From assembly GCA_963739235.1 (NCBI GenBank), contig CAVTZY010000024.1, positions 282,123 to 346,122 of the forward strand: a stretch of 64,000 bases of DNA. Direction: 5' to 3'. This DNA comes from Terriglobia bacterium. GTDB taxonomy: Bacteria > Acidobacteriota > UBA6911. The notes beneath the pieces are model-generated. The model saw nothing but the letters and a program-made list of their open reading frames with translations. It was not told the DNA's origin and ran no database searches. The position numbers were made by a program, and so were the translations under genes. This document shows positions 15,161 through 34,374 of this stretch, one piece after another; position 1 is the first letter of the stretch, and the number at the start of each line of letters is the position of its first letter.

Positions 15161-15204
15161 CTGGCCGACTGTGCAGGACCATGTTCATCATCCTTATCCC
15201 GCTA

Positions 15205-15984: not shown

Positions 15985-16369
15985 GAGAGAGTCTGCCGGA
16001 CGTAAAGTGGGGTATACGGAAACTACGATGCGGTCCAGAAACGGCGCTCGGGTAAGTTGGCGACTTGAGAATTCCGGTGTTGGATTCTTCTCGCCAAATC
16101 CATCTGATAGATCGACGACACTCTCCAAAAACGAGTGGGAGTTTCCATCCTTGGCAACTGTTACAATCCATTTTTTTGGATCTTCAAAATCGACCGATTG
16201 TAACCAAATTGTCACTGTACGTGGTCGAAAAAGGGGCAAAATGAGGCAAAGTGGGATAAGAAGGGAATCGCGCTAAATTACGGTCGGCGAAGGGATTAAG
16301 TTGATTCCTAACGGTTTATTGAAAGTCCCCGACTAGCGTTTCAAGACCGCCGCCTTCAACCACTCGGCC
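15985..16369. repeat. Conserved ~385-bp repeat unit, copy A: ~340 bp of non-coding sequence fused to a 41-nt copy of the tRNA-Ser 5' half (16329..16369 matches 12271..12313)
   Basis: Near-identical to 33985..34374 (copy C) and partially to 29555..29771 (copy B); terminal 41 nt identical to the 5' half of the tRNA-Ser gene through the anticodon loop. Confidence 0.8.
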
Positions 16370-16400
16370 ATTCCTCCGCAGTCGTAAATTGCAGGAAATA

Positions 16401-16691
16401 TTACACTTTCCCTGTTACATTTTTCAAGCCTCCGAGATGTTTGAGCATTCCGGCATCCCGATCCCAGGAAGCCTTGTTCGCCTTGGCGAATACCGTGTAT
16501 TTTTCGGAAAATTCACCAAGGCTGATCTTGGGGACAACCTGGTACTGCCCTTTGCCGACATCGGCCTGTCGGATTGCCAGCAGTCTCTCCGCCTCCCGCC
16601 GACTTGTCGCGCGGGACGATTCGAAGACTCGCCGTCTATTCTGGTCAAAGAAATCAATCCACCAGACGCGGCCGCGTTTGTAGATTCCCAT
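16401..16691 (-). pseudogene. int: Tyrosine integrase, N-terminal fragment only (truncated remnant)
   Basis: 96 aa MGIYKRGRVWWIDFFDQNRRRVFESS...GKGQY matches the conserved N-terminus of tRNA-targeting phage integrases (MGIYKR..WW.DF); ORF terminates after 96 codons, far short of ~400 aa; lies immediately next to tRNA-half copy A. Confidence 0.7.
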
Positions 16692-16758
16692 TCCTTTCCC
16701 TTTCTACCCTTTGCCAGCCGCGAGGCGGATTCTATCACACAGGCGGCACGACGTTACG

Positions 16759-16980
16759 CTAGGATGTTGGCCAATTCCGATCGGGCCGGGCCGCTCGTCG
16801 GTTGGCCTGAATGAACTTCTCCAGATCATCCAAGTCGAATCGAACCGTCCTGCCGATCTTCACGAATGGAATTCGCCTCTGCCATAACCGGCTCTAAAGC
16901 GTCGATACCGAAACCGCCAGAAATTCCGAGGCCTGGCGAATATTCAGGAGCCTGCCACTACGGGATTCGAGTGGTTTCAT
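16759..16980 (-). pseudogene. AlpA/excisionase-like HTH protein with in-frame TAG replacing the conserved Tyr (…VSTL*SRLWQRRIPFVKIGRTVRFDLDDLEKFIQANRRAA)
   Basis: Manual translation of minus strand: MKPLESRSGRLLNIRQASEFLAVSVSTL[TAG]SRLWQRRIPFVKIGRTVRFDLDDL... matches the AlpA/Xis consensus (..STLYRLI..G.FP.P.KIG.R.VRW...DL..W); amber codon at 16894..16896; immediately upstream of the integrase fragment. Confidence 0.55.
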
Positions 16981-17567
16981 AACAGACCCTCAATAGCAAA
17001 GATAATAGCCGACCCCAAAATCCGGTGAATCCGTGGACCGAAGTTAGGAGCCAACGCCAACTTGAGCGGACCATCACCTTCAGGGAACCGATCCAGGAAC
17101 CAGCGCGCCGTCCACACCGCTGTGGCGACGATGGTACATACCAGGCTTTTGCATTCAATGATCCTGCGGAGCCCTCTAGCCTCCCGACTGTTTGATCTCG
17201 GATTGTCGAGAATCCTTCGCCTTTCCCCCTGTGGTCCTGTTTTTGGGGAGCCACTGCTGAAAGTCGCGGTCCCTACTGAAAGTGTAGCGCAGAACTGTTC
17301 GATGACGTAGTTTTGGCCACTGTGAATGAACCGCGCATAGCACTCGACGAGTTCCATCAGTTCAGGATCGAGCCGCAATGTGAACTGCTCTTTTTTCGGA
17401 GGGATGATTTCCTGTTCGATCAGAGGCATCTGACGTCCTCGCTTTCGTGAAGTCTGATATACTGCGCGAGTCGCTCCGCGACTTTCGCAGAACTTCGCCC
17501 TAGAGGTGAGATCGCATCGAAACCAGAATCTTTTATAATAAAGGATGCTTTCGTGTGTCTTCCTCAA
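16977..17567 (-). CDS. Hypothetical protein, first gene of the integrase/excisionase remnant operon
   Basis: 196-aa ORF ending 3 nt before the xis-like start; no recognised motif. Confidence 0.3.
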   Translation of the reverse strand: MRKTHESILYYKRFWFRCDLTSRAKFCESRGATRAVYQTSRKRGRQMPLIEQEIIPPKKEQFTLRLDPELMELVECYARFIHSGQNYVIEQFCATLSVGTATFSSGSPKTGPQGERRRILDNPRSNSREARGLRRIIECKSLVCTIVATAVWTARWFLDRFPEGDGPLKLALAPNFGPRIHRILGSAIIFAIEGLL

Positions 17568-18192
17568 CGAATCTCGACGGGAACATTGGTCGCAAAGGAC
17601 CTTCCATCAGCGGCGTCTTGTGCCACACTGCGTATTGAGTCCTCCCCCAGGCGCACATCTGAATGACGGCTCTGAGCCCGCAGCGAACGAAATGTGCTGG
17701 TGAACGTAAACCTTTTCGACATTTTCAAGTTCGGAATGGAGGAGTTGTGACAAGACAAGAAGTAGGCCAGTTATGCTGTAAAGTGCTCGGAATCTATACG
17801 TTCGTTTCTTCCCATATCGCGACCTATGGACAATATCGCTCGGCAGGCTTGTCACGCAGCAGCACTTATTTCTACAGCGTCAAAAGTCGGTTGTGCCTCT
17901 GTAACTAGTTGATTCAAGGACATTTGGCGGCGCATCAAAACACCCGGTGAGTCGTAACTGTTCCATCGCAGCTTCGCGCTGGTGTTCTCCCCGTTCTCCT
18001 TCGTGATTGATTTGCAGCATCATCCTTCTCGCGACAACCCGCATGAATACTGGGCCTTCGAGTGGTCTGGCCGTTTCGACATGTCCCGGCTTGGCCGCGT
18101 GACCACAGGCTGGGCAGTCATTAGTGTCTCCAGAATGTGGAACAATTACGAGTCATGTTATATAATCGATCGTAATTGTTCCAGGAGGCGCT

Positions 18193-20759
18193 ATGACTTC
18201 AAAGATCCAGCCCCTTTCCCGGCTCAATCAGCTCTTCCGGCGCAAGCGGGCCGCGCTGCTCGACGACCTGCGCCAGGCGCTGGGCACCAGGTCGCGCACG
18301 AGCATTTTCCGGATATTGAAGGCCGTCGGATACTTCACCAGCTACAGCCACGCCGGACGCTACTATACCTTGCGCCGCATCCCGAAGTTCGACCGGTGGG
18401 GCCTGTGGGCCTGGCGCGGTATCGGGTTCTCTTCCCGCGGCACGCTGCGTGCCACGGCGGTGTTTCTGGTCGAGGAGTCGGCGGTCGGGCAAACACACGA
18501 AGAACTGCAGCAACGGCTCGGACTGCGCATCTACGACACGGTGCGGAGCCTGGTCGCGGATGGGGCAATCAGCCGCGAACGCTTCGAGGATGTTTACCTC
18601 TACTTGAGCGCGGATCCGAAGAAGGCCGCCGTTCAGATGGCGGCGCGGCGGGAACTTCATGCCGCCGTTGTCGCCCGGCCAGCAGACCCGTTGCTGGTGA
18701 TCGACGTGCTGGTACGTGTCATTCATCACCCGCGGGACGATGCCGCGACGATCGCTGCGCAATTGCAGTCGGCCGGGCGTTCTGTGACGCCCGCTCAAGT
18801 CGAGGGAATCCTTCATGCTTACGGCGTAAAAAAAACGGCGGTCCGGTCACCCTCGCTCAGGTCGCAAGCCTGAGGCAGGCAATCCGGCAGTTGCAGGACG
18901 ACTGCCGGCAACGCTCGCAGAGCATCGCCGGTGTGCTGGTCGAGGCGGATGAGATCAGGCAACAATGTTCATCCTGTGGCGGTCCGACGCGGGTGAGGAA
19001 GACGTGGGTACGCACGGGCGTGACATTGCACCACGGCACTTTCCGCCTGCGGCAGAAGGTATGCATCTGTGTCTCCGGCTGCCCTGGGAGCAAACGGACC
19101 GGCGCGCTCGCCAGCCTCGTGCCGCCGCGCGGCGTCGTCGGCTACGACGTTATGGTCTACGTCGGGCTGGAGCGCTTTCTGCACCACCGGCAACGGGAGG
19201 AAATACGGGCGTCTCTTGCGGCCGATCATGGGATCTGGCTTTCCAGCGGCGAGATCAGCATGCTGGCCCGCCGGTTCCTGGCGTATCTGGAGCGGCTGCA
19301 TCATGCCGCGGCCCCTCGGCTTCGGGCCGCGTTGGCGGCAGACGGCGGCTGGCCGTTGCACATCGACGCGACCGGGGAAGACGGCCGGGGGACGTTGTTG
19401 GTGGCCTTTGCCGGATGGCGCCAGTGGGTGCTGGGCGCCTGGAGGATTCCCACGGAGCGCGCAGAGGCCATCCTCCCCCGTCTGCACGAGGTGACGTTTC
19501 GTTTCGGGCCGCCCTGCGCGATCGTGCGCGACCTGGGCCGGGCCATGGCAGAGGCCTCCGATCAGCTCGTCCGTGAACTCAAGCTCTCCATTCCCGTGCT
19601 GGCCTGTCATCTCCACTTCCTGGCTGACGTTGGCAAGGGCTTGCTCGAAGCATCCCACGACCGGCTGCGTGCCTTGTTCCGGCGGGCGAAACTCCGCAGT
19701 CAGTTGCGCGCTCTGGCGCGGGACCTGGGTCGCAGTCTTGGCCGCGACATCGACGGTGCGCGTGCCGGCTTGCGCCTCTGGCAGGCCGAGGCCGCCGACC
19801 GGGAGCGTCAGTTCCCTGAGGGCTCGGCTGGAATCGCCACGGCCCGTGCGCTCGCCCAATGGATCCTCGACTATCCGGCGGACACCCACGGGGACGGATT
19901 TCCCTTCGATCTTCCATGGTTGGCTCTCTACGATCGTTGCCTGCAGGCTGCCGGCGCGGTCGAGCACTTCCTGTCCGACCCGCCCCGGAATTGCGCAGTC
20001 CGCAAGTCCCTCCGGCGCCTTCGGCGTATCTTGGGGCCCATTCAAGACAACGATCCAGGCTTCGGTGCCGTTGCCAGCACGTTGGCGCGCCGCGCCGCAC
20101 TTTTCGCCGAGTTGCGAAAAGCGCTTCGGCTCCAGCCAGAGTCGAATCGAAGAAATCACACATCGTCGCAGCCGCAGAGCGCAACGCGAGAGTTGAAAGA
20201 CATCCGTCTGGCGGTGCGCCGCCTGACCCGTTCTCTGCGCACGCGCCGTCCGAAGCGTGGGCCGGCTCAAGACCACCGTCAGGCGATCGATATCGTCCTG
20301 TCCCATCTCAAGACGCATGGCCGTTATCTTTGGGGTCATGCCATCCACCTGCCCGGGAAACTCAACGGCCTTGTTCACCTGGTGGAGAGGACCAACAACC
20401 TGATCGAGTCGCTTTTTCACACACTGAAGCATGGTGAACGTCGCCGTAGCGGCCGAAAGGTCCTCACGCACGATTTCGAGAACCTCCCGCCGGCCGCGGC
20501 TCTCGTGACAAACCTGACCCACCCCGATTACGTTTCGCTAGTCTGCGGGTCACTCGACCGACTGCCCGAGTCTTTCGCAAAACTCGATGACAAAGCTGGC
20601 CCCAAGCCTAAATCATCGGTCACCTTGCTGGCGGCGAGTTCAGATCCGGAGAGTGCTTCGCTGCCGAGTGCTGATCGGAAGCTTGTACGCACGGAGGAAA
20701 TGACCCAGCGCATCATCGAAGCCGCTCAGAAGGGCTCACGGGCGAGGATGGTCGCGTGA
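18193..20759 (+). pseudogene. DDE transposase (IS4 superfamily, ISAs1/H-repeat-like signature), apparently frameshifted between an N-terminal ORF (18193..18873) and a C-terminal ORF (ending 20759)
   Basis: LHIDATGEDGRGTLLVAFAGWRQWVLGAWRIPTERAEAI resembles the ISAs1-family DDE core (aIDGKtlrgs...hlvsAfa..g.vLgq); C-terminal VERTNNLIESLFHTLKHGERRRSG resembles the transposase E-containing motif; two frames needed, implying a frameshift; many overlapping ORFs here are GC-driven shadows. Confidence 0.45.
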
Positions 20760-20994
20760 GATGTGCAAATCCAACCGACTTTTGACGCCGTAGACTTATT
20801 TCGTAGGGACGATACGCTTGAGTTCTTCGATCCAGTTTTGCACAAGAAGCATTTCTGTCACAGGCGTGGGCTTTCTTTGTTCCATTTTGATCGATCAACA
20901 CGGTCATGGATCGCACAATCATATAAATCGATATTGCCTAAACAAAGAAAGAGCGGTAGAAGCATCAAACGTAAACCTGCTCAGGAGGAACAGC

Positions 20995-21909
20995 ATGAGT
21001 CATTTTCGGATACTTATGTGCTGTGCCGCGCTCCTCAACTCGATTTGCGGCTTCGCAAACCAGCCCATCCCGGGCAACCGCGCTGAAGATGAACGGATGC
21101 TCCGTGAGATGGAAATCGAGGCGTCGAGAGCACTGGCTGCAAAAGACCTGGGTCATTTGATCTCTTTATACGCTGATGATGCTTCGATTTTTTATGCAGA
21201 TAATCGTGCAGTAACCGGGAAGGCTGCGATCCGGGAGACATGGAGGACTATTCTCGTCAAGCCGGGCTTCGCAATGAGCACCGAGCCATTGAAAGTGGAG
21301 GTTTCAAACAGCGGCGATTTAGCATTCATCCATGGCGCTTATACAATCACAATGAATGATGCCATGGGCAAGCCAATAGCGGACAAGCGTGAGTATGTCC
21401 TAGTATATAAGAAACAGCCGGACGGCAAGTGGAAAGTCTTCGCTGACAGCGGCAATTCCGATTTTCGCGTCCATTCACTCCCCAAACCCCCGGACAGGCG
21501 GCAACAACCGGCCTCGATGATTGGACCACTTGTAGGATTAGCATGTTTTTTCAGCGGCATTTGGTTCCTGTTCGGGATGCCGGTTGTCGTGGCAGTTTTG
21601 GTGTGGAAATGCTGTCGAAACCGCAAATTTTCCGCGGGCCTTCTGGTCGCGGTCGTCATGCTCATCGTCTTCTGGGGCAGCGCCACACTGCTTTGGAGGC
21701 AATTTGCCACCCATTTATGGAATTTCTCTTTTATGACGGCGCTCCATGCGGCCGGAGATGCGGAGACGTATGGCCACCCGATCGAGCACACAGCCGAGGT
21801 CCTGCTGGCTAATCTCCTGATTTTCTCGACGCTTTCAGCGGCGGCGGCGGGAGCGATTACCGGTGCATTACGAAGCTTATGGATCAGGCACCGGCGTCTG
21901 GCCGTGTGA
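20995..21909 (+). CDS. Secreted/membrane protein with SnoaL-like (NTF2-like, DUF4440-type) domain followed by C-terminal transmembrane helices
   Basis: ORF track 20818..21909; likely start ATG 20995 preceded by AGGAGGA; signal-like MSHFRILMCCAALLNSICGFA; LISLYADDASIFYADNRAVTGKAAIRETW and KREYVLVYKKQPDGKWKVFAD typical of SnoaL-like fold. Confidence 0.5.
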   Translation: MSHFRILMCCAALLNSICGFANQPIPGNRAEDERMLREMEIEASRALAAKDLGHLISLYADDASIFYADNRAVTGKAAIRETWRTILVKPGFAMSTEPLKVEVSNSGDLAFIHGAYTITMNDAMGKPIADKREYVLVYKKQPDGKWKVFADSGNSDFRVHSLPKPPDRRQQPASMIGPLVGLACFFSGIWFLFGMPVVVAVLVWKCCRNRKFSAGLLVAVVMLIVFWGSATLLWRQFATHLWNFSFMTALHAAGDAETYGHPIEHTAEVLLANLLIFSTLSAAAAGAITGALRSLWIRHRRLAV

Positions 21910-22352
21910 GGCTGGTCGAATTCCGTATCCAAATCTCCGGGCTTTGGAAGCTTCGAGAAAACAAATTCAAAAGAGCTTCAAGTAGGCGGGAGCAAGGCAC
22001 CTTGTCCCGGGAGTTAGCGAACTTGTAGCTTGGATTTCCCTTCCTCACAAACAGGCACCTTCCCCAGATACGTCAGATCTCTATCGAAAGCGCCCCGGGC
22101 AAATATTCGCGCTCACTCGAAGTTTGTCTGCCGGGGCACTTCCGATAGAGATCTAACGTTTCTGGACCGCGATCCCTCTTGTCCGATTTGCCGACTCGGA
22201 AGCTGGGGCGCCCCGATGGGCAGGTTCAGATGTCAGAGAGACAAGTCATTTGGACTATCCGTCGAAAGGCAGGCAATGTAAAATATTTATTCCCAATAGT
22301 TTGTCTTGGCTAAAGTACCTGTCAGATCTACCGCCACCAAGAGGAGAAGAAA

Positions 22353-23085
22353 ATGAAAGAATCAAAAACAGTACAGACCATGAACACCTCAGATAGAACC
22401 ATCGGCGAGATCGTCGCCGACGATTACCGGACCGCCAAGGTCTTCGAAAACCACGGGATCGACTTCTGTTGCGGAGGCAATGTTGCCCTCGCGGCAACCT
22501 GCGCCCAGAAAGGGATCGATCTTGCCGCGATAACAGGGGAACTCGAGGGGGTGAAGAGTGAACCGGTCGAGCGGAGCCAGAATTATGTTTCGTGGGAGAT
22601 GCCGTTCCTGGCCGACTACATCATCAACGCCCACCATACCTATCTCAAAGAGAATACCGGGCAGATCGCTGCCTACACACATAAAATCGCTGCTGTCCAT
22701 GGTGCTCACCATCCAGAAGTGATCGAGATCGCCACGATCTTTGACAAGATTGCAGGCGATATGGCGATCCATCTACGGGAAGAGGAGGAGGTTTTCTTTC
22801 CGGCCATTAAACGGGCCGATGCGACCAGAAAGGCAGGCGCAGCACCGGCAGCCGAAAGACATCGAAACGATCAAGGAATCACTCAAGAAGCTCAGTCATG
22901 AGCACGAGGAGATTGGCGATGCGATTCACACGATCCGCCATCTCTCAAAGGAATATGCTATACCAGTTGATGTCTGCAATACCTTCGTGGTCACTTACCA
23001 GAAACTCAAGGAGTTCGAGGACGACCTCCACAAGCATGTGCACCTTGAAAATAACATCCTCTTCCTCAAGGCTGCACAGCTATAG
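22353..23085 (+). pseudogene. ric: Iron-sulfur cluster repair di-iron protein (RIC/YtfE/ScdA), interrupted by a frameshift near 22820..22850
   Basis: N-terminal ORF 22353..22901 has ScdA_N motif DFCCGG and hemerythrin-like HLREEEEVFFP; C-terminal part continues in another frame (22741..23085: ...YQKLKEFEDDLHKHVHLENNILF); together ~244 aa matching RIC length. Confidence 0.7.
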
Positions 23086-23229
23086 AAGGAGACATCGGGC
23101 AAACAAGTATATGACAAGCAAATAAAAGGAGACTGACAGTTCGCCCCGCGGCGCCATCGGCGTTATACCGCTGGTGATCGCAGCAGGATTGACGTACCTG
23201 GACATGAAGAAACTGAAAGGAGATCAACC

Positions 23230-23793
23230 ATGACGACCAATAGCCCAACGCAAATGCTTGAGGACGAACATCTCGTCATCGCCAAAGTGGTCGGCGCGGC
23301 TCCAGTGCTGGCCGACCGATTGGAGGCTGGCCAGGTGGTGGACGTGGAAACACTTTGGGGGGTGGTCGAATTCATGCGTACCTTCGCCGACAAATGCCAC
23401 CACGGCAAGGAAGAGGAACTGCTGTTTCCAGCTTTGGCCAATAAGGGCATCCCAATGCAAGGCTGCCCGGTGGGAGCGCTGACTGCCGAGCACACGCGTG
23501 GCCGGATGCTCGTGAAAGAATTAGCGGAAGCAGCAGAAGCCTACAAAAGCGGTGAGCCTGCTGCCAAGGGGGCAGTGGTCAAGAGTCTGAGAGGAATTGC
23601 CGCGCTGTATCCCAACCACATCTGGAAAGAGGATTACCTGCTGTTCCCGATGACCGAAAAAGTCCTGAGCATGGAGGAGCAGCAGAGTCTGTACCAGCAG
23701 TTCGAGCTAGTGGAGGAGCGAGTAGGCCGCGATGTGCATCACCGCCTGGAGCAATTCGCCGAGGGGCTTTCCGCGAGCACCCAGGCTGGATAG
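23230..23793 (+). CDS. Hemerythrin-like HHE cation-binding domain protein
   Basis: 187 aa; HHGKEEELLFPAL and EDYLLFPM motifs characteristic of hemerythrin-like domains. Confidence 0.7.
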   Translation: MTTNSPTQMLEDEHLVIAKVVGAAPVLADRLEAGQVVDVETLWGVVEFMRTFADKCHHGKEEELLFPALANKGIPMQGCPVGALTAEHTRGRMLVKELAEAAEAYKSGEPAAKGAVVKSLRGIAALYPNHIWKEDYLLFPMTEKVLSMEEQQSLYQQFELVEERVGRDVHHRLEQFAEGLSASTQAG

Positions 23794-23891
23794 ACGATTT
23801 GCTGTGGTCCAGCGCGTACCGGATAAGCATAGTTCTATAAGGCGGACTCATTGAGTTCATTCGCAATTACCACCAATAACGGAGAGATCCC

Positions 23892-24515: not shown

Positions 24516-24698
24516 CGCATCACGCGAAGAAACTCGGGACGTCATGCAACTGCAGCACACTTGGTCGATTGGAAGAGGCAAACGGCGGGAATCTCGGCCG
24601 ACATCGAGTGCGTTGAAACCCAGGCCCATTCGGCAGCAAGAGTCTGGATCCGGGAAACCTGCATCGGGACACCGTATAGGAATTGAAGGGGGCATATC

Positions 24699-26987
24699 AT
24701 GATCGACACTTCTACAGACGTTTCGAGTCTCTCTCCGTGGTGGAAACACGCGGCGATCCTGGTGATGATTGCTGGTTTCTCGGTTCTATCCTTGGTTACG
24801 GTCCTGACCTACACAAACGCTCCACCCATCCCCGAGAGGGCTGCAGATGTAACGGGAACCGTGGTTTTTACTGGAGCTGACATTCAAAAAGGCCAGGAGG
24901 TCTTCCTCAAGTACGGTCTTATGGAGCACGGGAGCCTGTGGGGCCACGGGGCTTATCTGGGTCCTGATTACAGCGCGGAGTATCTGCACAGACTTAGCGA
25001 GGTGACCCGGGACGGGATGGCGATCGAGAAGTACGGCAAGCCGTTTGCGCAGCTCTCGCCGGACGAGCAGAGCGTCGCATCAGCGCGGACGGCAACGGTG
25101 CTCAAGGAGAACCGGTACGATGCAGCCTCGCGAACGCTCCGGCTCTCGTCAGGCGAGGTGGATGCCTACCGCACCCAGCTCTCCGAATGGGGCGAGTACT
25201 TCAGCAGGAAGGACGCCGCTCCCGGGCTGCCAGACAACTATATTCAGAACCCCGCGGAGATCAAAGCTCTGACCGCTTACTTCGCCTGGGCAGCCTGGGC
25301 CACAACGGCGAATCGCCCTGGGAAGAATTATTCGTACACCAACAACTGGCCCTACGAGCCCATCGCGGGAAACCGTCCTTCCACCGAGACCTATGTCTGG
25401 AGCGCCTTGAGTCTCATCACCCTCCTGTCAGGGCTGGGTTTGATCCTCTTCGTCGTCGGCAAGTTCGACTACCTGGGTTGGAAGGGCGAGGGCGGCGGCA
25501 CCCATATCATGCACTCTGCTCCCCCCGCTCTGAAGCTCACGCCCAGTCAGTGGGCTACGGGGGCGTTCTTCGGCATCGTGGCGCTCTTGTTCCTGGCGCA
25601 AGCATTCCTGGGAGGCGTGCTCGCCCACTACCGTGTGGAGCCAGGAGCCTTTTACGGGTTCGACATAGCCCGCGTGCTGCCCTACACCCTGGCGCGCACC
25701 TGGCACCTCCAACTCGCTATCTTCTGGATCGCGACGGCCTGGGTGGGCGGCGGCCTTTTCCTGGCTGCGTGGGTCGGTGGCGGGGAGCCCAAGGGCCAGA
25801 GGACCGGCGTTTACGCACTCCTCGGGGCGCTGGTGGTGGTCGTCGTCGGCAGCCTTGTCGGCGAGTCCCTCGGCATCAACGACAAGCTGGGACAGCTCTG
25901 GTTCTGGTTCGGCCACCAGGGTTCCGAGTACCTGGACCTCGGGCGGTTCTGGCAGTTCCTGCTGGCGGTCGGCCTCCTCTTCTGGCTGTTTCTGATGTTT
26001 CGGGCGCTGAAGCCTGCCATCAAGAGCCCTGGCATGCGCGCACTGTCCTCACTCTTTCTGTACGCGGCCGTGGCGATCCCTGTCTTCTACCTGCCCGCCC
26101 TTTTCTACGGCCCCCACACCAACTTCGCCGTTATCGACAACTGGCGCTTCTGGATCATTCACCTTTGGGTGGAAGGATTCTTCGAACTCTTCGCGACGGT
26201 GCTGGTGGCCATCATGTTCCACCAGATGGGCGTGGTCAGCACCAAGACCGCCACGCGCCTGATTTACCTGGACGCTATCCTGTATCTCAGCGGCGGGATC
26301 ATCGGCACGGGACACCATTGGTATTTCACGGGACAGGGAACGCTCAACATGGGCCTGGCGGCATGCTTCTCCGCTATGGAAGTTGTGCCTCTCACGCTTC
26401 TGACGCTGGACGCCTGGGACTTCATCAAGCTGAGGAAGGCGCAGTGTTCCACGTGCGGCCACGATCTTGCCTGGGGCCAGAAGTGGGCCATTTATTTCCT
26501 CATGGCCGTGGGTGTATGGAACTTCGTCGGCGCAGGCATCTTCGGTTTCCTGATCAACCTGCCGATCGTGTCCTACTTCGAGGTGGGCACGACACTCACC
26601 CCCAATCACGGCCACGCCGCACTATTTGGTGTCTTTGGGATGCTGGCCCTGGCGGTCCTGGTCTTCTGCTTGAGGGCTATGCAATCCGACACCGCTTGGA
26701 AGGGGACGGAGAAGTTCATCCGGGTGGGCTTCTGGGGTCTTAATGTGGGCCTCGCGCTCATGATCATCCTGGATCTGTTCCCCGGCGGAGTAATCCAGCT
26801 CTGGGATTCCATCGCCAATGGTTACTGGCACGCACGCCGCCTGACCTTCCTGATGAGCGGCACCTACCATAAGCTGGAATGGCTGCGCATGGTGGGGGAT
26901 ATGGTTTTCCTCTTGGCCGGCGCCTTGCCAATAGCGCTCGGCGCGTTGCGAAGTGTGTGGAAAAGGGATCTCTCTCCCATGGAATGA
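24699..26987 (+). CDS. norZ: Quinol-dependent nitric oxide reductase (qNOR), single-subunit haem-copper oxidase superfamily
   Basis: 762 aa with ~12 TM helices plus N-terminal extension; conserved His-containing helices (WHLQLAIFW, IIHLWVEGFFE, GHHWYFTGQ) of NorB/qNOR; length typical of qNOR. Confidence 0.9.
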   Translation: MIDTSTDVSSLSPWWKHAAILVMIAGFSVLSLVTVLTYTNAPPIPERAADVTGTVVFTGADIQKGQEVFLKYGLMEHGSLWGHGAYLGPDYSAEYLHRLSEVTRDGMAIEKYGKPFAQLSPDEQSVASARTATVLKENRYDAASRTLRLSSGEVDAYRTQLSEWGEYFSRKDAAPGLPDNYIQNPAEIKALTAYFAWAAWATTANRPGKNYSYTNNWPYEPIAGNRPSTETYVWSALSLITLLSGLGLILFVVGKFDYLGWKGEGGGTHIMHSAPPALKLTPSQWATGAFFGIVALLFLAQAFLGGVLAHYRVEPGAFYGFDIARVLPYTLARTWHLQLAIFWIATAWVGGGLFLAAWVGGGEPKGQRTGVYALLGALVVVVVGSLVGESLGINDKLGQLWFWFGHQGSEYLDLGRFWQFLLAVGLLFWLFLMFRALKPAIKSPGMRALSSLFLYAAVAIPVFYLPALFYGPHTNFAVIDNWRFWIIHLWVEGFFELFATVLVAIMFHQMGVVSTKTATRLIYLDAILYLSGGIIGTGHHWYFTGQGTLNMGLAACFSAMEVVPLTLLTLDAWDFIKLRKAQCSTCGHDLAWGQKWAIYFLMAVGVWNFVGAGIFGFLINLPIVSYFEVGTTLTPNHGHAALFGVFGMLALAVLVFCLRAMQSDTAWKGTEKFIRVGFWGLNVGLALMIILDLFPGGVIQLWDSIANGYWHARRLTFLMSGTYHKLEWLRMVGDMVFLLAGALPIALGALRSVWKRDLSPME

Positions 26988-27335
26988 GACAGAAACTCGA
27001 AATTACTCGCGATTTGAGGAACCTGTTTTCGGCGGAATTGCGAGGTTATGGGAATGTCCCCGAAACTTATTCTCCTTGAACAAGGCAAGACCCCATGACG
27101 GTCACCGGGATTCGACATAAAAATGTGGAGAATGTTTCGATCGTCCCCGGGTTCTGAGAGCTGCGCCAGATTAACCCATTACTTGCGTTCGTAGTAATTG
27201 GGCTCGCCGCAGATCCAGCCGGCTCCGTAAGCAGCCGGCTGCTCAAACACCGCGCAACCCGGATCGCCACACGGATCGCAGGGCGAGCCGGTCAGCGCCG
27301 TGCAAATGAGAGGCTCGAGCCCGCGTCCAGAGCTG

Positions 27336-27914
27336 TCAGTCTGCGCCATGTGTCTCCCCAGTCTCCCCCGGGTGGACCAGCGGCCCAGTGACGATGCCGG
27401 TGATAACCTCCTTCTCAGCTGGCCGGCTTTCGGCGATCATCAGAGTAATGGCCACCAGGGCACCCTCGGACAACCGGCGGTTTCCGTTCGGCAGGTAGAG
27501 CGCTCCATTTTTCTCGAGGAACCAGAGGAAGAGCGCCGCGCCGATGCGCTTGTTGCCGTCCACGAAGGGATGATTCTTGACCAGGAGGTAGAGCAGGTTT
27601 GCGGCCTTCGCCTCGACGCCGGGATAGGCATCCCTCCCGCCTATGCTTTGCATGATCGCGCCGAGGGAGCTCCTGAGGCCTTGATCCTTCTCCCGGCCGA
27701 AAATGGAGGAGCCGCCATACTTCTCACGCAGCCAATCCACGATCCGCAGGGCCTCATCGTATTCCAAGGCGGTAGCGGCACCCTCCCGCGTCTCCGGCGG
27801 AGCAAGGCGCTTGTGGTCGTAATCGTCCAGGATGTCCAGGGCGAAGGAGTAGTCGGCCACGACGCGCAGGAGAGCGCCGGCTTGATCCCCCCAGTTCACG
27901 CCGGGCCGCGACAT
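27336..27914 (-). CDS. Fic/Doc-family protein
   Basis: 192 aa; motif HPFVDGNKRIGAALFLWFL matches the Fic/Doc HPFx(D/E)GN(G/K)R active-site signature. Confidence 0.65.
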   Translation of the reverse strand: MSRPGVNWGDQAGALLRVVADYSFALDILDDYDHKRLAPPETREGAATALEYDEALRIVDWLREKYGGSSIFGREKDQGLRSSLGAIMQSIGGRDAYPGVEAKAANLLYLLVKNHPFVDGNKRIGAALFLWFLEKNGALYLPNGNRRLSEGALVAITLMIAESRPAEKEVITGIVTGPLVHPGETGETHGAD

Positions 27915-28132
27915 CGGCCACCAGGCGAATGGCTAGCTTCAATTCCCTCAGTCGCCTCTCATTGGCCGAGTAACCCTTGAGGATATTAGAAACCAGGGAC
28001 GCTACGCTATTTTGTCCATTTGAGAACATTACTTGTTCTTTCCACTTGTGCAAAATAGGGTGGCGTCCCTAGTTGCCCCTAGTTGCCCACGGCGCGTCCC
28101 CTGCAAACGTGGTTTAGCCTTTTTCATGATGA

Positions 28133-28807
28133 TCACCAAAGAGGTTTTCCGGTGACCTTCTTTGCGTGAGCATTGATTTGCCCACCCGTTTTGGAGACAA
28201 CCTTCTGAAGAAAGGCAACATGCTCCTTCACCCACTTTTCGTCAAGTTGTAAGCGGACTTTACCGCGGTGCGCGATTTGGCCACGAACTTCGACGAGGGC
28301 ATCCAGCTTTTTGGACGCGACCTCTGGCGTGAAGCCTTCGAACTCCCAGGAAGTTCGAATATCAGCGATGCCGAGCACTCTCCTCACGAACTCGGCCGTG
28401 TTCTGTGCCTTCGGCGTGTTGAAACTTCTTTCGCGCGCCAATCGCAAGCCCGGCAGTCTGTCCTTCAAGTACTGCCGCCATCCGCTGTCTGCAAGTTGCC
28501 ACATCCATATCTCATTCTTCTCCTCCTTTATCTCGTCGGCAACCTGTTTCTTGATCTCCTTCGGCAGTTTCGTGGCGTCGCTTGCGTGTTGGACAAGGTG
28601 GTCAAGTGCCTCAGAGCAGATGTCTTCAACATATGCCTCCCAATGACTCACCATTAGAACGACCGCCGAGCGGAAGACTACCCCATAACCTTCAGGAACT
28701 GATTCTCCATCCACTTCCCACAAGCCAACAACCGCTCGGTAGAGATCAATGAGGTTGTCGATGTCTTCAGCGTTCTGCTTGAATCGTTTCCAGGCGTTGC
28801 TAGGCAT
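28133..28807 (-). CDS. HEPN-like (Rx4H motif) protein, possible abortive-infection/RNase family; lower GC
   Basis: 224 aa; C-terminal RGQIAHRG fits the HEPN Rx4-6H motif; overall resembles MAE_28990/RiboL-PSP-type HEPN proteins; weak. Confidence 0.4.
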   Translation of the reverse strand: MPSNAWKRFKQNAEDIDNLIDLYRAVVGLWEVDGESVPEGYGVVFRSAVVLMVSHWEAYVEDICSEALDHLVQHASDATKLPKEIKKQVADEIKEEKNEIWMWQLADSGWRQYLKDRLPGLRLARERSFNTPKAQNTAEFVRRVLGIADIRTSWEFEGFTPEVASKKLDALVEVRGQIAHRGKVRLQLDEKWVKEHVAFLQKVVSKTGGQINAHAKKVTGKPLW

Positions 28808-29554
28808 TGCTTGACTGTCAACCTTGAATCATACAGGTCTGACGAAATAGATATGGGGCCAGGAAGTGGCGATGTATTTCGACAGCTTCCCGAGCCAGAT
28901 CGGCGTTAACCAATCGTTGTTCCGCAAGCTAGAGATGCCGCCGAATGGGCGGTGTAGCCAGATAGGCCGCGGGCCTGGCCCTGCCAATCGGATGATAGCG
29001 GCAATTCTTCACTCGCCCTCTCCTCACCATGCAGACCCCGCGGTGTTACGCGGCGGCTTATTCCAGGGCGATTGAGGCACGCTTGGCCAGGAAATTCCAG
29101 GCATGACGTAGCCGGCGGCAGACTTGCACACTGGCTCAAGTCCTATCCGTGCTTCATATGTCGCGCTGATGCGTCACGTTCATTTCAGAAGCGAATTCAC
29201 TCGATCTGCAAGAAGAGCATTGCCTTGCTCATCATTCCCGTGCCGCTGGAATCGCAGCGGCCGTCCTTTGTCTGATTCGTTCCCGATTCCGTTCCCGCTC
29301 GCTTGCACAGGGAACGGGAACGGAAGGAACGAAATCGTCCTGGCCGATTTCTGCGCGGCAAAAGCCTCCAGGGTAATTTTGTACTGGCATGAAAATTGCC
29401 GCTCCTCGATATTTCAATAGCTTACGAGACGGCGCAATCAGCCAGGACAATGCGGAATGCTGGGAATGGCTCTTGATGCACGCTATTCCAGGGAACCTGC
29501 CCGATCGTGCCGGGTTCCTCCTGAATTAATGCGCCGCGTAACACGATTACGACT

Positions 29555-29771
29555 AGGAGGTTTCCATTTTCGGCAACTGTTACAATCCATTTGTTTGGAT
29601 CGTCAAAATCGACCGATTGTAACAGAATTGTCACTACACGGGGTCAAAAAAGGGGCAAAATGGGGCAAAGTGAGATAAGAAGGGAATCGCGCTAAATTGC
29701 AGTCGGCGAAGGGATTTAATTGAATTCTAACGGTTTATCCAAAATCCCCGATTAGCGTTTCAAGACCGCCG
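29555..29771. repeat. Copy B (5'-truncated, more diverged) of the ~340-bp unit plus a 14-nt vestige of the tRNA-Ser 5' half (29758..29771)
   Basis: Aligns to 16136..16340 of copy A (ggcaactgttacaatccatttttttggatc...gcgtttcaagaccgcc) and then diverges. Confidence 0.65.
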
Positions 29772-30005
29772 TCTTTGTGACAGCTTTCAAGCAAGAGCGC
29801 ACGCAGCTTCCGTGTCAATGTACGGGTAATGCGTTATACGTCCGGAATGCCGATTTTTCGCCCATGTGGCTGGTCATTCATCAACTTCCCACAAAGCCGT
29901 TAACCGCCCGCGTGAACGTAATACGTCGCTTCGGCGAGGATCCTTTTCACAAAACAGCGAACCCGAAGTTCGGGGTTAGGACGCGTTTCAAAAAAAGTAA
30001 ACTGT

Positions 30006-30314
30006 TCAGTGTTTTCGCAGCTGGCGAGCCCATAACGCAAGCCAGAGGGCAATAAACGCAAGCAAGAGTAACCAGAGTTTAATAAGGGCCAACCCCCAGA
30101 ACCATACGTTTCTCACAGTGTCCCAACTGGCATTCGGTCCCCACAAGTACAATTCCAAGTTCGGACGCAAGGCCATGAAAACCAGATAGATGATCCACTG
30201 CACCAACAGGAATCCTAATCCAATCAAAAACGTCCACCACCCTGCTGCCGCGGCGCATCTGACTCGCAACTCAAATATATCGTTCAAGGCGGTCCCCTTT
30301 CTGAATCTACCCAA
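30006..30314 (-). CDS. Small hypothetical membrane protein (3 TM helices)
   Basis: 102-aa ORF with long hydrophobic stretches. Confidence 0.35.
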   Translation of the reverse strand: MGRFRKGTALNDIFELRVRCAAAAGWWTFLIGLGFLLVQWIIYLVFMALRPNLELYLWGPNASWDTVRNVWFWGLALIKLWLLLLAFIALWLALWARQLRKH

Positions 30315-30891
30315 GTATGTCTGTTTTGACGGGCATTTGGTTCACACTTCCTTTCTCAGGAGAGTGTGTCATGTGGCACGATTTTTCGAGATGTTCTTAT
30401 CTCATCGCCGATGGGCGCAAGACCAAAATTGGATTGTATGGAACCTCTTTAAAGGAATGCAGGCTCCATTCCCGATGCTTACCTCGGAAATCAAGGCATC
30501 CTGTGCAACCAGAATTCGTGCAATAATACTGCCGCTTTCCCATGTTTTGACAGCAATTTATAGAGAGAATCGATCTCAATTGCTTTAAAGTGGGGTACAC
30601 GGAAACTGATTTTTCTTGCACCGGCCACCGACCAGATACGAATTCTACCCAGATCTCTGCGTTTTTGTCATTGTACGAGATCGCCGTTCGCCCAGAATGG
30701 CCGGGTCAATCGCCGTCCGAATGCCAGGCCGTGGATAAAATAGACTTTTTCTTCCTTATCTGCATCTTAAGAGCACGCACGGTGACGTGTCTCCTGCGTT
30801 GTGCCACCGTACACGGGCGGAGCTGGATTAATTAGCTTCGAAAAATGATCCCTCTTGAGAATCATCCAACAGAGGCGTAGGAGAATAAACC

Positions 30892-32076
30892 ATGAAATCC
30901 TGCCGTTTGTTTATTGTTCTGTCCTTCTGCCTTTTGTTTTCTTTTTCGAGCGAGCGCATCGCCGCGCACCAGCAGAGGATTGCGGGCGATGGGAGCCTCC
31001 TTCTCCCTGGCGCTACACCCGAGCAGGCGGGACAGCAATCGGATAAGATACTGCAGAATCTCGCCGACACGAGTCAGCTGGAACTTACCCGCAAGAGGAA
31101 GCAGCCCGCTCCGATGGCCTTGGCGCAGACCATCTCAGCGCAAGATCAGAATTCAATCAGATTCGATAATGTTCCCTTGCTTCAATTCTTGCGGCAAATG
31201 ATGCGACGGCTCGACATCTCGGTTATTCTCGTGGACAGTAACGTCAAGCTGCAAGGATACGTTACCATTCACAGGGATGCCCCGGTTTCTAGGCAAGAAC
31301 TGCTGAGTATTTTCATTGATGAACTGCGCACCAGTGATGCCGTACTTGTCAAATCGGGAAGCATCATGCAGATTGTCCGCAACTCGCGAGATTTGGGTGA
31401 AGGGTTTGAGCCTGTAACCAGTCCGGCGGAGATTGTGCCGCGCCCCCCGGGCGGTGGCGTGACTATGGGTCATGATCATTGTCCTATTTCTGACTTCATC
31501 GTTCAGATCGCTGATATGTTAGATATCATTCCTCTTGTGATCAGTCCGGCCATTCGTGGAAGTGTTACCCTTTTCGGTGAAGCTGTGATCGGCAGAGAGC
31601 AAGTGTATTCGATCCTGAACACGGTTCTGAAAAATAACGGTGCCCTGATCATCGAGTCTGCCGGTAACTATCAAATCGTTCCGGCTTCCAGAAATGTGCC
31701 GCAGGGATGGAAGATTTTGGACAGCCCGCCTGCACCCTCCCGCAGCTTTCCACGGCATGGCCGCGTTGTGAAACAGGAAGAATTGGAATCCCACATCCTA
31801 ACCCGAGTCGAACCCGCACTTGTGTTCGCAGATGGACGCAGGCTCACCGGAGAGGTGCAGTTGTATATTGCATTGAACGAACGAGGAGAGTTGGAGCTTT
31901 TGCGTGCCATCGCTCCTGCGGCGTTGCCGCTCGCCGAGGCCGCGATTGACGCTGTGAGGCAATGGCATTTCAAACCGTTTGCGGATGCAAACGGATTGCC
32001 CCAAAGAGTTTGGGCTTTGATCACCATTGTGTTCGATGCGCCGAAGCCGAGCCTGCTGGGCACATCTCGCAACTGA
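30892..32076 (+). CDS. Secreted protein with secretin/TonB N-terminal (STN-like) region and TonB C-terminal-like domain
   Basis: 394 aa; signal peptide MKSCRLFIVLSFCLLFSFS; FDNVPLLQFLRQMMRRLDISVILVDSNV resembles STN/secretin_N; C-terminus VEPALVFADGRRLTGEVQLYIALNERGELELLRAI...AIDAVRQWHFKP resembles TonB_C. Confidence 0.45.
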   Translation: MKSCRLFIVLSFCLLFSFSSERIAAHQQRIAGDGSLLLPGATPEQAGQQSDKILQNLADTSQLELTRKRKQPAPMALAQTISAQDQNSIRFDNVPLLQFLRQMMRRLDISVILVDSNVKLQGYVTIHRDAPVSRQELLSIFIDELRTSDAVLVKSGSIMQIVRNSRDLGEGFEPVTSPAEIVPRPPGGGVTMGHDHCPISDFIVQIADMLDIIPLVISPAIRGSVTLFGEAVIGREQVYSILNTVLKNNGALIIESAGNYQIVPASRNVPQGWKILDSPPAPSRSFPRHGRVVKQEELESHILTRVEPALVFADGRRLTGEVQLYIALNERGELELLRAIAPAALPLAEAAIDAVRQWHFKPFADANGLPQRVWALITIVFDAPKPSLLGTSRN

Positions 32077-32453
32077 ATGGCTTGCACGGCTGATCCGCTC
32101 AGGGTTTGTTACATATTTCCAAGCTGGTTCTGGAGAAAAATAGCAGTTTCTGAGGGAAATTTGCGCGAGCAGCTTCTGAGCTTTATCTCCCATCATCGCA
32201 GTATGTTAAGGGAGTGAACCTTAGGTCAGTTGTGGTATAGTGGCCTACACGGAAACTGACATTTAGCCACTGCTGTTCGGCCCAATCAAACGTTCAGTTC
32301 TTTGTTCTGTCGGGACTATTCCCCGGATGCATGCTCCTCAGAGAAGTTGTGCCGAGGATTTTAACGGCCTTATTAGCATCCCCCCCTTGCGCACCTGGAG
32401 TCGTTGCAGGTCAAGAACTTGGTGACCTGTCATGGCAACGCCGAGGACAGAAA

Positions 32454-32774
32454 TTAGCCGAGTCCGGCCAGGATGGAGGTTAGTAGGGACGTGAACCGAG
32501 GCACGACGATGGCCGTCAGCGCCAACACCGCGGCCCAGCCGATTAAGTCCAGGATTTCCGGAAGCAGGGACGGCACGCGTACCGGGAGTTCCCGCGCAAT
32601 TCGATCGTGCACGGCGGAGGCCAGGTCCTTCGGCGCGCATATGCCTGCGAAGGCGGCATCGAATCTCTCGTCGACTTCGGCCCACGCCGCCAGCAGCGCG
32701 TGGCACTCTTCACAGTGAGCGGCATGACCCTCGCTGCCTTCGTTTAATAGCTCTTCCAACTCAGGGCAGGCCAT
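32454..32774 (-). CDS. Putative zinc-finger anti-sigma factor with C-terminal TM helix
   Basis: 106 aa; HAAHCEECHALL (HxxxCxxC) typical of zf-HC2 anti-sigma factors; start overlaps stop of upstream ECF sigma gene. Confidence 0.55.
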   Translation of the reverse strand: MACPELEELLNEGSEGHAAHCEECHALLAAWAEVDERFDAAFAGICAPKDLASAVHDRIARELPVRVPSLLPEILDLIGWAAVLALTAIVVPRFTSLLTSILAGLG

Positions 32775-33355
32775 TATAGAGCCCCTTTCCGCACCCGCTT
32801 GCGGGCCATTTCCTCGGCCAGGCTCTTCCGCGCACGAAACAGGTAGGTCTTCACCGTTCCGACCGGAATGTCTAGCATGGACGCCACTTCATCATACGAC
32901 TTCTCTTGCATGTAAAAAAGCGCTACTACCTGCCGGTACCTGGCAGGCAACCGGTCCAGCAATTCCGCGGCCTCCGGGGGGCCCACGATTGACCACTCGG
33001 CGGCAGCCCGTCGCTCCATCTCGCGGCGCGAGGCAGGTTCGTCGATGGAAACGAACCGGGTGTCCCTTCGCTCCAGGGCCGTGAGGCAGGCATTCCGCGC
33101 AATCGTGTAGATCCAGGTGGAGATCGACGATTCGGCACGAAACCCGGGCAGGCCCTTCCACACCCGGACCAGCACATCCTGGGCAGTCTCCTCGGCGGCG
33201 GCGCGGTCTCCCAACATCGAATAAGCAAGGCGGAGGATCTTATCCTGGTATTCGCGGATGATCCGTTCGAAGTCTTCCGCCATAGCACTATTTAGACCCT
33301 GTCTCAATGAGCCAAAGTTTCGAAACTTCTGCCTTGGGGCGCTAGTCTCAATCAC
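32774..33355 (-). CDS. ECF (sigma-24 type) RNA polymerase sigma factor
   Basis: 193 aa; region 2 (ETAQDVLVRVWKGLPGF...STWIYTIARNACL) and region 4 (YRQVVALFYMQEKSYDEVASMLDIPVGTVKTYLFRARKSL). Confidence 0.85.
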   Translation of the reverse strand: MIETSAPRQKFRNFGSLRQGLNSAMAEDFERIIREYQDKILRLAYSMLGDRAAAEETAQDVLVRVWKGLPGFRAESSISTWIYTIARNACLTALERRDTRFVSIDEPASRREMERRAAAEWSIVGPPEAAELLDRLPARYRQVVALFYMQEKSYDEVASMLDIPVGTVKTYLFRARKSLAEEMARKRVRKGAL

Positions 33356-33370
33356 CAGGAGGAATCAATA

Positions 33371-33853
33371 ATGCTCAATGAAGCTGGATTTTTTCTCATT
33401 CTCTTGATCGCCACTCAGGTGGTCATCTTTGTAGCATTGTACTTCCGTCACCGCAACCTGCAGATGTTTCATCAGGAGCGGATGGCTGCGCTCGAAAAAG
33501 GGACTTCCATTCCGATCGGGCACGCACTGGCGCCATGGTCCCCGCGGGTCTACCTGTTGCGCGGCTTATTGTGGAGTTTTGCGGGCGCTGCCCTGATCAT
33601 CAGCTTGTTGGGCATTGCTGCCGCAACCCGTCGCCCCGAATCTGCTGAGTCCACACTTTGGAGAGCCAAGAGCTTGGCTCAAAGCTTCAATATGTCCGCG
33701 GAAGAGGCAAAACAGATCATCGAAAAGGACCGAGACACCGGTCGGAATGGAATGCCGCGGAGCGTCGCTTTATTGGGCCTCATTCCTCTGGGAGTTGGCC
33801 TAGCCTATCTCGTCTTCTACTATGCGGGCGACATCCGGCGCTCCGATGGATGA
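33371..33853 (+). CDS. Hypothetical membrane protein
   Basis: 160-aa ORF with three hydrophobic helices; divergently adjacent to the sigma/anti-sigma pair. Confidence 0.4.
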   Translation: MLNEAGFFLILLIATQVVIFVALYFRHRNLQMFHQERMAALEKGTSIPIGHALAPWSPRVYLLRGLLWSFAGAALIISLLGIAAATRRPESAESTLWRAKSLAQSFNMSAEEAKQIIEKDRDTGRNGMPRSVALLGLIPLGVGLAYLVFYYAGDIRRSDG

Positions 33854-33984
33854 ATGCGACACGCTACCTTTAACACGAAAGGTGCGCATACCGTCCCGGC
33901 AAAAGCATTGAATTTAGCATGAAAAATGAGGAGCAGGTATAATTGCCGCATAAGGCTGAAATAGAAAGGTTTGCCACCAAAAGA

Positions 33985-34374
33985 TTCCTTGCCGGGCGTA
34001 TTGTGGTCTATACGGAAACTACGATGCGGTCCAGAAACGGCGCTCGGGTAAGTTGGCGACTTGAGAATTCCGGTGTTGGATTCTTCTCGCCAAATCCACC
34101 TGATAGATCGGCGACACTCTCCAAAAACGAGTGGGAGTTTCCACCCTCGGCAACTGTTACAATCCATTTTTTTGGATCTTCAAAATCGACTGATTGTAAC
34201 CAAATTGTCACTATACGTGGTCGAAAAAGGGGCAAAATGAGGCAAAGTGGGATAAGAAGGGAATCGCGCTAAATTACGGTCGGCGAAGGGATTAAGTTGA
34301 TTCTTAACGGTTTATCGAAAACCCCCGATTAGCGTTTCAAGACCGCCGCCTTCAACCACTCGGCCATTCCTCCG
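33985..34374. repeat. Copy C of the ~340-bp unit plus 40-nt tRNA-Ser 5' half (34335..34374)
   Basis: ~95% identical to copy A over ~385 bp. Confidence 0.8.

Follow-up and report, generated by a model that had tools for sequence, protein, structure and literature searches.

The tRNA-Ser gene and its displaced 5' halves

We analyzed a 64,000-nt stretch of the genome of a Terriglobia bacterium from the phylum Acidobacteriota (contig CAVTZY010000024.1, positions 282,123 to 346,122), referred to here as the window. It carries an intact tRNA-Ser(UGA) gene on the minus strand and, upstream of this gene, three copies of a conserved unit of about 340 bp, each joined to a complete or damaged displaced 5' half of the same tRNA gene. 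The initial annotation of the window had proposed a serial accretion of islands on the 5' side of the tRNA. This proposal is supported by the linkage of an integrase family to tRNA-Ser, by the junction of a complete element (L004) together with other arrays, and by a relative (L062) that lacks one of the blocks. The units are very probably attL-type scars of tyrosine-integrase elements that integrated serially at the anticodon loop of tRNA-Ser(UGA), on its 5' side and in reverse orientation. Read along the tRNA strand, the order of the locus is the flank; half C, unit C and block E_C; relic half B, unit B and block E_B, which ends with an excisionase pseudogene (xis') and an integrase pseudogene (int'); half A, unit A and block E_A; and finally the intact tRNA. 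Coordinates are collected in Table 1, where the unit is termed the P' arm and the stretch upstream of each half the P arm, after the two arms of a phage-type attachment site (attP).

ARAGORN and Rfam placed the 5' end of the tRNA at position 12311. Nucleotides 1–39 (12273–12311) form the block common to the intact gene and the displaced copies (repeat family D2), whose final base is also that of the anticodon loop (...GGTCTTGAAA). Each of the three copies had been described as ending in an identical copy of the first ~41 nt of the tRNA gene; halves A and C are indeed identical to the gene, over nucleotides 1–39, but in copy B only the last 14–16 nt of the half remain, at 29758–29773. The 16-mer GGCGGCGGTCTTGAAA, which spans the anticodon stem-loop, occurs four times in the window, compared with 0.04 occurrences expected. 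No displaced copy of the tRNA 3' half was found in the window, where the 3' half is present once, in the intact gene. Since nucleotides 1–39 recur and the 3' half does not, the duplicated part is the 5' half and not the usual 3' half, in agreement with the initial annotation. All three fragments are co-oriented with the intact tRNA and lie upstream of its 5' end, that is, at higher coordinates for this minus-strand gene. The signature by which Islander recognizes islands, an intact tDNA accompanied by a co-oriented displaced end fragment of the same tDNA, is present, and all three fragments lie on the side that is expected of 5' fragments, upstream of the tDNA.

Table 1. Positions in the window of the tRNA-Ser gene, its displaced halves, the repeated units and the three blocks
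Feature	Positions	Strand	Basis and remarks
Intact tRNA-Ser(UGA)	12222–12311	minus	ARAGORN and Rfam RF00005, 59.2 bits; single gene
Decayed P-arm remnant upstream of intact tRNA	12312–12370	minus	~24/36 identity, by eye, to the int 3' end/P arm of copy A
Element E_A	12312–16338	minus	4,066-bp insertion with one repeat copy; Pfam; D2 spacing 4066
Unit A, assigned as P' arm of attP (attL side)	15994–16338	minus	block A 16280–16297; tandem GTGACAATTTGGTTACA 16199–16215; inverted TGTAACA 16159–16165
Displaced tRNA 5' half A, nt 1–39	16339–16377	minus	repeat finding, alignment; similarity runs on to 16382
Element E_B, ~13.4 kb	16378–29757	minus	Pfam, NCBIfam
E_B proximal P arm	16378–16432	minus	last ~9 int codons and stop; promoter-like TTGAAA-18-TAATAT (16427–16398); inverted site ATGTAACAG; compared with the C-terminus of P0002 and with L062
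Integrase pseudogene int', 96 aa	16401–16691	minus	N-terminal ~87 aa joined to last ~9 codons; catalytic domain deleted
Excisionase/AlpA-like (HTH_17) pseudogene xis'	16759–16980	minus	in-frame stop; upstream of int'
Unit B, distally cut P' arm	29549–29757	minus	block A 29699–29716; tandem site 29618–29634
Relic junction B	29758–29791	minus	last 14–16 nt of half, directly preceded by P-arm remnant CTTGAAAGCTGTCACAAAGA; compared with L062
Element E_C, ~4.6 kb	29772–34334	minus	Pfam
Unit C, P' arm	33990–34334	minus	block A 34276–34293; tandem site 34195–34211
Displaced tRNA 5' half C, nt 1–39	34335–34373	minus	repeat finding, alignment, BLAST
Half C and ~45 nt resembling int 3' end/P arm	34335–34418	minus	alignment, BLAST

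The repeated unit and the integrase remnant

Repeat finding, alignment and BLAST confirmed the three copies of the unit in the window. In the tRNA orientation, the unit lies directly 3' of each half and occupies the place of the tRNA 3' half. Unit C differs from unit A at 11 positions in ~345 nt (~96% identity), and unit B is 88% identical over ~210 nt and diverges beyond. Comparison with L062 indicated a ~56-bp deletion at relic junction B, between the P-arm remnant and the remainder of the half, which took the rest of the half. The ~40–50 nt upstream of the half are conserved between copies A and C, and weaker or shorter remnants of this stretch precede copy B and, in a more diverged form, the intact tRNA. 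A coding function of the unit was rejected, since the open reading frames (ORFs) of A and C (MDCNSC... and overlapping frames) lack a conserved start and are absent from both B and L014, the latter being the closest relative of the window unit. The exact 22-mer TTAGCGCGATTCCCTTCTTATC of the unit had no match in viral, genome or metagenome collections; the exact unit sequence is rare, and relatives were reached via the integrase and the junction.

Two minor features of the unit were recorded. The string AAACCGTTAGG, which corresponds to tRNA nucleotides 37–47, recurs 28 nt into P' at 16306–16316 and at the same place in units B and C, and may be a vestige of the tRNA 3' half or a secondary core site. 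When the proximal region of P' was scored as a decayed tRNA 3' half on the basis of this string, 104 of 500 shuffles reached the score, and this candidate was dropped as not significant. A 49-nt inverted repeat at 29043–29091 and 29496–29544 (73% complementary, 404 nt apart) starts where the similarity of unit B to A and C stops, and looks like a small miniature inverted-repeat transposable element (MITE)-like insertion that cut the P' arm.

Beside copy A, an N-terminal fragment of an integrase had been reported. A remnant is present there; it is, however, not a simple N-terminal fragment but a gene with an internal deletion, in which the last ~9 codons and the natural stop remain. The pseudogene reads toward half A, with its natural C-terminus (...GLKNVTGKV-stop) kept and the stop codon 23 nt before the half.

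An integrase family linked to the 5' side of tRNA-Ser

The int' sequence led to full-length relatives of 361 aa that contain PF00589 and an N-terminal domain and carry precomputed PF24624 Int_N matches. At E<1e-20, 4,150 database proteins were found, many of them from metagenome-assembled genomes (MAGs) of 'Candidatus Acidiferrales'; the integrase clade to which int' belongs is a large one within the Acidobacteriota. In the four contigs obtained by exact protein look-up (L001–L004), a co-oriented tRNA-Ser(UGA) lies 3–4 nt past the int stop. A scan of species-representative genomes gave 39 loci, and the 29 that reach 53% identity or more and have an intact tRNA downstream were considered informative. 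A co-oriented tRNA-Ser starts between -14 and +44 nt from the int stop in 29 of these 29 loci, with anticodons TGA (23 loci), GCT (5) and CGA (1). Two further loci match the pattern in a modified form: L053 has a tRNA with a corrupted 5' half, and L054 combines a family integrase with a tRNA-Ser 5' half joined to a different arm (11046–11300) containing three TGTGCAAC repeats, apparently through the use of the same anticodon-loop site by a heterologous element. Integrases that are just 28–39% identical show the ordinary arrangement, with the tRNA on the opposite strand and the integrase gene abutting its 3' end. The uniform use of the tRNA 5' side by the family, together with the use of the 3' end by these distant integrases, indicates that the reversal is a property of this clade. 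The nearest annotated phage and plasmid integrases reach at most 30–36% identity.

The intact relatives L003 (551–9986) and L004 (7995–9887) contain a rep (REP_ORF2-G2P)-xis-int module. Their cargo consists of GTPase/caspase-like conflict-system genes in L003 and of a single 630-aa protein with a faint RHS-repeat match in L004, and the integrase family seems to represent small plasmid-like integrative elements with variable cargo. A 196-aa ORF beside xis' in the window showed no similarity to the Rep protein of L003.

A complete element, relic junctions and a relative without E_A

L004 contains a complete element of 3.7 kb, in which a large chromosomal GH94 gene is followed by a tRNA 5' half, a P' arm beginning CGCTAAT, the gene for the 630-aa protein, int and the intact tRNA. 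The L004 P' arm and the window unit are 72–77% identical. Between the displaced half and the half linked to int, which differ in the D-arm, only the stretch CCGGCGGTCTTGAAA is common; therefore, the exchange must lie in the anticodon stem/loop. The element thus supplies the 5' part of the tRNA that adjoins its own sequence, as is seen both in the D-arm difference of L004 and in all 29 int-tRNA loci. In loci such as L044 and L046, the 3' strand CTCCTCC faces an element-type GGAGGGG, and the resulting G-U pair is compatible with a chimeric tRNA.

A metagenome scan with the junction 19-mer returned 18 contigs, of which ~11 are true relatives, L014 among them. Junctions of the int 3' end, the half and P' were present in L007 and L022. 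Relics with damaged halves, as in copy B, were present in L009, L010/L016, L011, L018 and L020, and relic junctions upstream of an intact element in L024 and L028. Decayed arrays are common in this integrase family.

A comparison with strains lacking one or more blocks had been suggested as a check on the accretion, and L062, a 1.1-kb contig, provides such a comparison for E_A. It is 89% identical to int' and 90% identical to the P arm and half A, and then runs straight into a tRNA that is 100% identical to that of the window. Relative to L062, the window has an extra 4,066 bp bounded by a 39–44-bp repeat, which comprises unit A, three small ORFs, the M20 peptidase gene and a P-arm remnant.

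Putative arm sites and promoter-like sites

The alignment of P' comprised 12 arms over ~225 nt. Its fixed features are the core; block A (AATCCCTTYGCCRRCCGY); a T-rich block (TTTTTGCCCGTTTT); a tandem GTGACAATTTGGTKACA at +122/123; and an inverted TGTSACA near +172. Block A was counted 13 times across the window and the 62 fetched loci, 880 kb in total, which corresponds to 12 distinct places when L030 and L004, which belong to the same contig, are taken together. It always stands 41 nt after the GAAA of the anticodon loop and is found nowhere else in this material. The initial annotation had stated that a unit dispersed at sites without a tRNA would be a generic repeat and not an island end; no such dispersal was seen within these 880 kb. 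The block A 19-mer had no match in viral contigs.

The tandem GTGACA motif is also found on the other side of the core: at ~22 distinct loci it lies in the int reading frame, ~98 nt upstream of the tRNA, and is translated as GDNLVTV. An inverted ACTGTCAC lies ~35 nt past it, still within int. Among 29 int genes (median nucleotide identity, 70%), the longest stretch without any variation in the final 337 columns is GTGACAA. It exceeds the one at the catalytic tyrosine, which argues for constraint on the DNA itself. L062 has an intact P arm of the window type with the same module (GTGACAATTCTGTGACAATG ... ATTGTAACAAG). On each arm, the site occurs twice in direct and once in inverted orientation, as would be expected of arm-type integrase sites, and the repeated motif is distinct from the core on both arms, as in lambda-type attachment sites. 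The conserved flank, for which an island arm-type end had been one of the two suggestions made, thus corresponds to the P' arm of attP, with fixed blocks and with GTGACA repeats that are shared with the P arm. Judging from the sequence, block A, the tandem GTGACA-N5-GTKACA and the inverted copy are most likely sites for the arm-binding domain of Int and for accessory proteins.

In window copy A, L023 and L062, promoter-like sigma-70 hexamers occur within the int 3' end, immediately upstream of the tRNA sequence, and the -35 element of the predicted tRNA promoter in L023 overlaps the inverted site. Before the intact tRNA of the window, a promoter-like pair (TTGCAA 12360–12355 and TAAGAT 12338–12333) is weak and falls under the scanner threshold.

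Proposed integration mechanism and alternative explanations

We propose that attP has the order int 3' end, promoter, tRNA nucleotides 1–39 and a P' arm of 225–345 bp, and that its functional part would cover ~350 bp, bounded by the tandem site in int on one side and by the inverted site in P' on the other. Int would bind the anticodon-stem core and the GTGACA arm sites, and recombination would occur within the common anticodon stem/loop (CGGCGGTCTTGAAA), with the exchange in or beside the 7-nt loop. The promoter and 5' half of the element would then be joined to the chromosomal 3' half, such that the tRNA stays intact and the chimeric gene would be driven by the element promoter. The previous 5' half would end up at the far end, fused to the P' arm of the newcomer, and this fusion would be what is seen as the 340-bp unit. 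Repeated rounds would push older elements outward to give E_A, E_B and E_C, and their recombination genes would later have decayed, with only E_B retaining int and xis pseudogenes. All recombination genes in the window are dead, so the array is now fixed. Islander also expects a tyrosine integrase inside each island; here only E_B has one, a pseudogene without the catalytic domain, and the three blocks are relics, not active islands.

Several points weigh against this mechanism. The window contains no intact integrase of the int' family, which limits the case for a mobility of these particular copies. E_A and E_C show no integrase remnant beyond ~40–50 nt. The decay of the P arm is most advanced in E_A, which is nearest to the tRNA and so expected to be the youngest, and this makes the order of events uncertain. 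L062 is a short contig from a related organism and not from the same strain, with 89% identity in int'. Most relatives of the unit were found by searching the junction itself, so that the association of the unit with the tRNA half is partly circular, except for the test with the block A motif. Promoters and arm sites were assigned solely by consensus and conservation. At the outer boundary past copy C, the sequence beyond 34418 may belong either to a fourth, deleted element or to the native upstream region of the chromosome.

Given the lack of integrase remnants in E_A and E_C, these blocks could also be integrase-less cassettes flanked by att sites, similar to cis-mobilizable elements, that were moved in trans by a related integrase and are not decayed autonomous elements. 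Both are small (4.0 and 4.6 kb) with P' at one end and a short P-like stretch at the other, and integrase-less relic junctions near an intact tRNA were also seen in L010/L016. The short P-side stretches, however, resemble the last int codons and stop, as would be left by a deletion in an int-bearing arm, and neither block has the tandem GTGACA sites that a working P arm should carry; we regard such cassettes as possible but unlikely. A generic dispersed repeat or a MITE is an extremely unlikely explanation for the unit, as is an origin of its copies by segmental duplication or homologous recombination without site-specific integration. In favor of such readings, just three copies are visible, all within the window, which is one stretch of the source genome, and the MITE-like inverted repeat adjoins copy B. 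Against them, every copy is joined at the same anticodon-loop nucleotide, and within 880 kb block A is confined to the junction. The unit also lacks terminal inverted repeats and has no match in phages, plasmids or viral contigs, and the junction is accounted for by the linkage of the integrase family.

A structured noncoding RNA (ncRNA) had been the other suggestion for the conserved flank. The unit would then belong to a transcript of 5' half plus unit that starts from the displaced tRNA promoter, or, in the excised circle, it would act downstream of int as a sib-like cis element that ties Int expression to the integration state. Promoter-like sites do precede the displaced halves, a terminator-like hairpin is present in unit C at 34146–34129, ~190–205 nt past the crossover, and int would read directly into P' in the circular form. 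In addition, the dyad symmetry of two inverted repeats in P' is retained, with changes on both sides in some cases; 76.8% of the cells are paired, compared with 69% in shuffles, and 0 of 500 shuffles reached the score. Dyad symmetry is, however, equally expected of protein-binding sites, and the best hairpin (IR1) is missing from the subfamily of the window itself. The unit had no Rfam match at the gathering threshold, and at E<=1 it gave just a 17.8-bit tRNA match driven by the 5' half; the folding z-score was -0.17; and the RNAalifold consensus reached -6.56 kcal/mol with a covariation term of -0.49. An ncRNA was rejected as the main explanation on these three tests and is, in our judgment, very improbable. 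A combined possibility, to which we give little credence, is that the P' arm of an integrating element doubles as an RNA-level switch. The int transcript of the integrated state would end at the complete tRNA, where RNase P could cut 3–4 nt past the int stop, and in the excised circle it would run into the truncated half and the P' hairpins, so that Int expression would differ between the two states. Such a switch would be comparable to lambda sib retroregulation, but built on a tRNA.

Comparison with known systems

Serial accretion at tRNA sites is also known from the integrative and conjugative elements and cis-mobilizable elements (ICE/CIME) of streptococci. The tycheposons of Prochlorococcus resemble the array described here in that one tRNA site is reused, older elements are pushed outward, and partial tRNAs, fragmented integrases and cargo blocks are left behind (bioRxiv 10.1101/2020.12.28.424599). 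In contrast to known tandem arrays, the accretion in the window is on the 5' side and the array is fully decayed. Arrays of three or more islands are rare in Islander, with 4 cases (PMC4383910).

Islands with a displaced 5' tDNA fragment account for 159 of the 3,919 islands in Islander (PMC4383910), and the use of the 5' part has been called 'considerably less frequent' than that of the 3' part, with such islands traced to Zhao & Williams 2002 (PMC6563490). Our comparison with the element of that study (J Bacteriol 184:859) is drawn from later papers that cite it. As in the islands with reverse target-gene orientation accepted by Islander, the island supplies the 5' part, and the displaced 5' fragment lies upstream of the intact gene and is co-oriented with it (PMC4383910). 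In contrast to those islands, a whole Acidobacteriota integrase clade appears to be fixed on tRNA-Ser (UGA, GCT and CGA), with the int stop usually 3–4 nt from the tRNA 5' end. The proposed attP of this family resembles a lambda-type attP in its length of ~350 bp, the short repeated motif on both arms at comparable distances from the crossover (~-135 and +122), the extra N-terminal domain of the integrase and the xis gene (HTH_17) beside int. It differs in that the putative P-arm sites lie inside the int frame, one of them overlapping the -35 element of a predicted promoter, and in having a tRNA anticodon stem-loop as its core. An overlap between attP and the coding sequence of the integrase is also seen in Mx8/SSV-type integrases, which are treated as an exception in Islander (PMC4383910). 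Unlike in these, the P arm alone overlaps int here; the crossover would lie past the stop codon and the integrase would be left unsplit and unaltered by integration.

Islands with 5' fragments, tandem arrays and integrase genes that overlap attP are thus already known, and the clade itself is apparently undescribed: our literature search found no description of this Acidobacteriota clade, of its exclusive use of the 5' side of tRNA-Ser, or of arm sites and a promoter within the int frame. For the window, the analysis explains a 22-kb patchwork beside tRNA-Ser, with an M20 peptidase, nitric oxide (NO)-stress genes, Fic/HEPN genes and extracytoplasmic function (ECF) sigma/TonB-like genes, as three stacked and now dead mobile elements. 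For an abundant soil Acidobacteriota integrase clade that acts at the 5' side of tRNA-Ser, it provides an attP map that comprises the core, block A and the repeats of the two arms. Such a map could be of use for island-finding software, given that ~96% of Islander islands carry 3' fragments, and for the annotation of partial tRNAs in MAGs, and the integrase family could supply site-specific integrases for Acidobacteria, which are genetically hard to manipulate. The general understanding of how such elements work is unchanged.

Cargo of the three blocks

E_A contains, according to Pfam, unit A, three small ORFs (15205–15750, 14663–15160 and 14204–14653), the M20 peptidase gene (12426–14207) and the P-arm remnant, and no integrase. 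E_B contains int', xis', a large, weakly IS66-like ORF, a DUF4440/SnoaL protein, ScdA, hemerythrin, DUF6448, NorB, Fic, HEPN and the truncated unit B. A 35-nt inverted repeat at 22064–22098 and 22131–22165 (89% complementary, 32-nt spacer), located ~190 nt upstream of the ScdA/hemerythrin/NorB cluster, may be an operator or a hairpin for these NO-stress genes. E_C contains a P-arm remnant, a GspD_N0/TonB_C protein (30892–32076), an ECF sigma factor (32774–33355), a DUF6249 protein (33371–33853) and unit C, and no integrase.

A 19-nt motif, AGTGGGGTAYACGGAAACT, was found on the plus strand at 16006–16024 (unit A), 34002–34020 (unit C), and 30589–30607 and 32239–32257 (E_C). In units A and C, the motif lies 12 nt in from the distal edge, and its other two copies flank the GspD_N0/TonB_C gene. 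In its 19–25-nt form, TA[AT]AGTGG..TAYACGGAAACT, the motif (repeat family D3) has 4 copies, compared with 0 expected, and it is absent from all 62 fetched loci. An ECF-sigma promoter was rejected for this motif, as the four copies have no common -10 element. The motif may be a regulator site or a boundary of cargo exchange; that it marks a secondary cargo-exchange site is a separate and rather doubtful idea.

Sequence on the 3' side of the tRNA and other features of the window

The sequence on the 3' side of the tRNA (1–12221) has a lower GC content (~0.50–0.53) and island-like content, with genes for a DUF4365 protein (421–1383), a 200-aa integrase catalytic-domain ORF (3986–4588), RadC (4604–5251) and an N6-methylase/HSDR_N restriction-modification protein (8366–10327). 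This region probably represents a second island, located on the ordinary 3' side. A second integrase, abutting the 3' end of the tRNA, is also present in L001 and L004. In addition, two matches to the small RNA family Acido-Lenti-1 were identified in the window, at 45223–45268 on the plus strand and 57469–57514 on the minus strand (49 and 52 bits, compared with a gathering score of 37), and are consistent with the Acidobacteriota source of the DNA.

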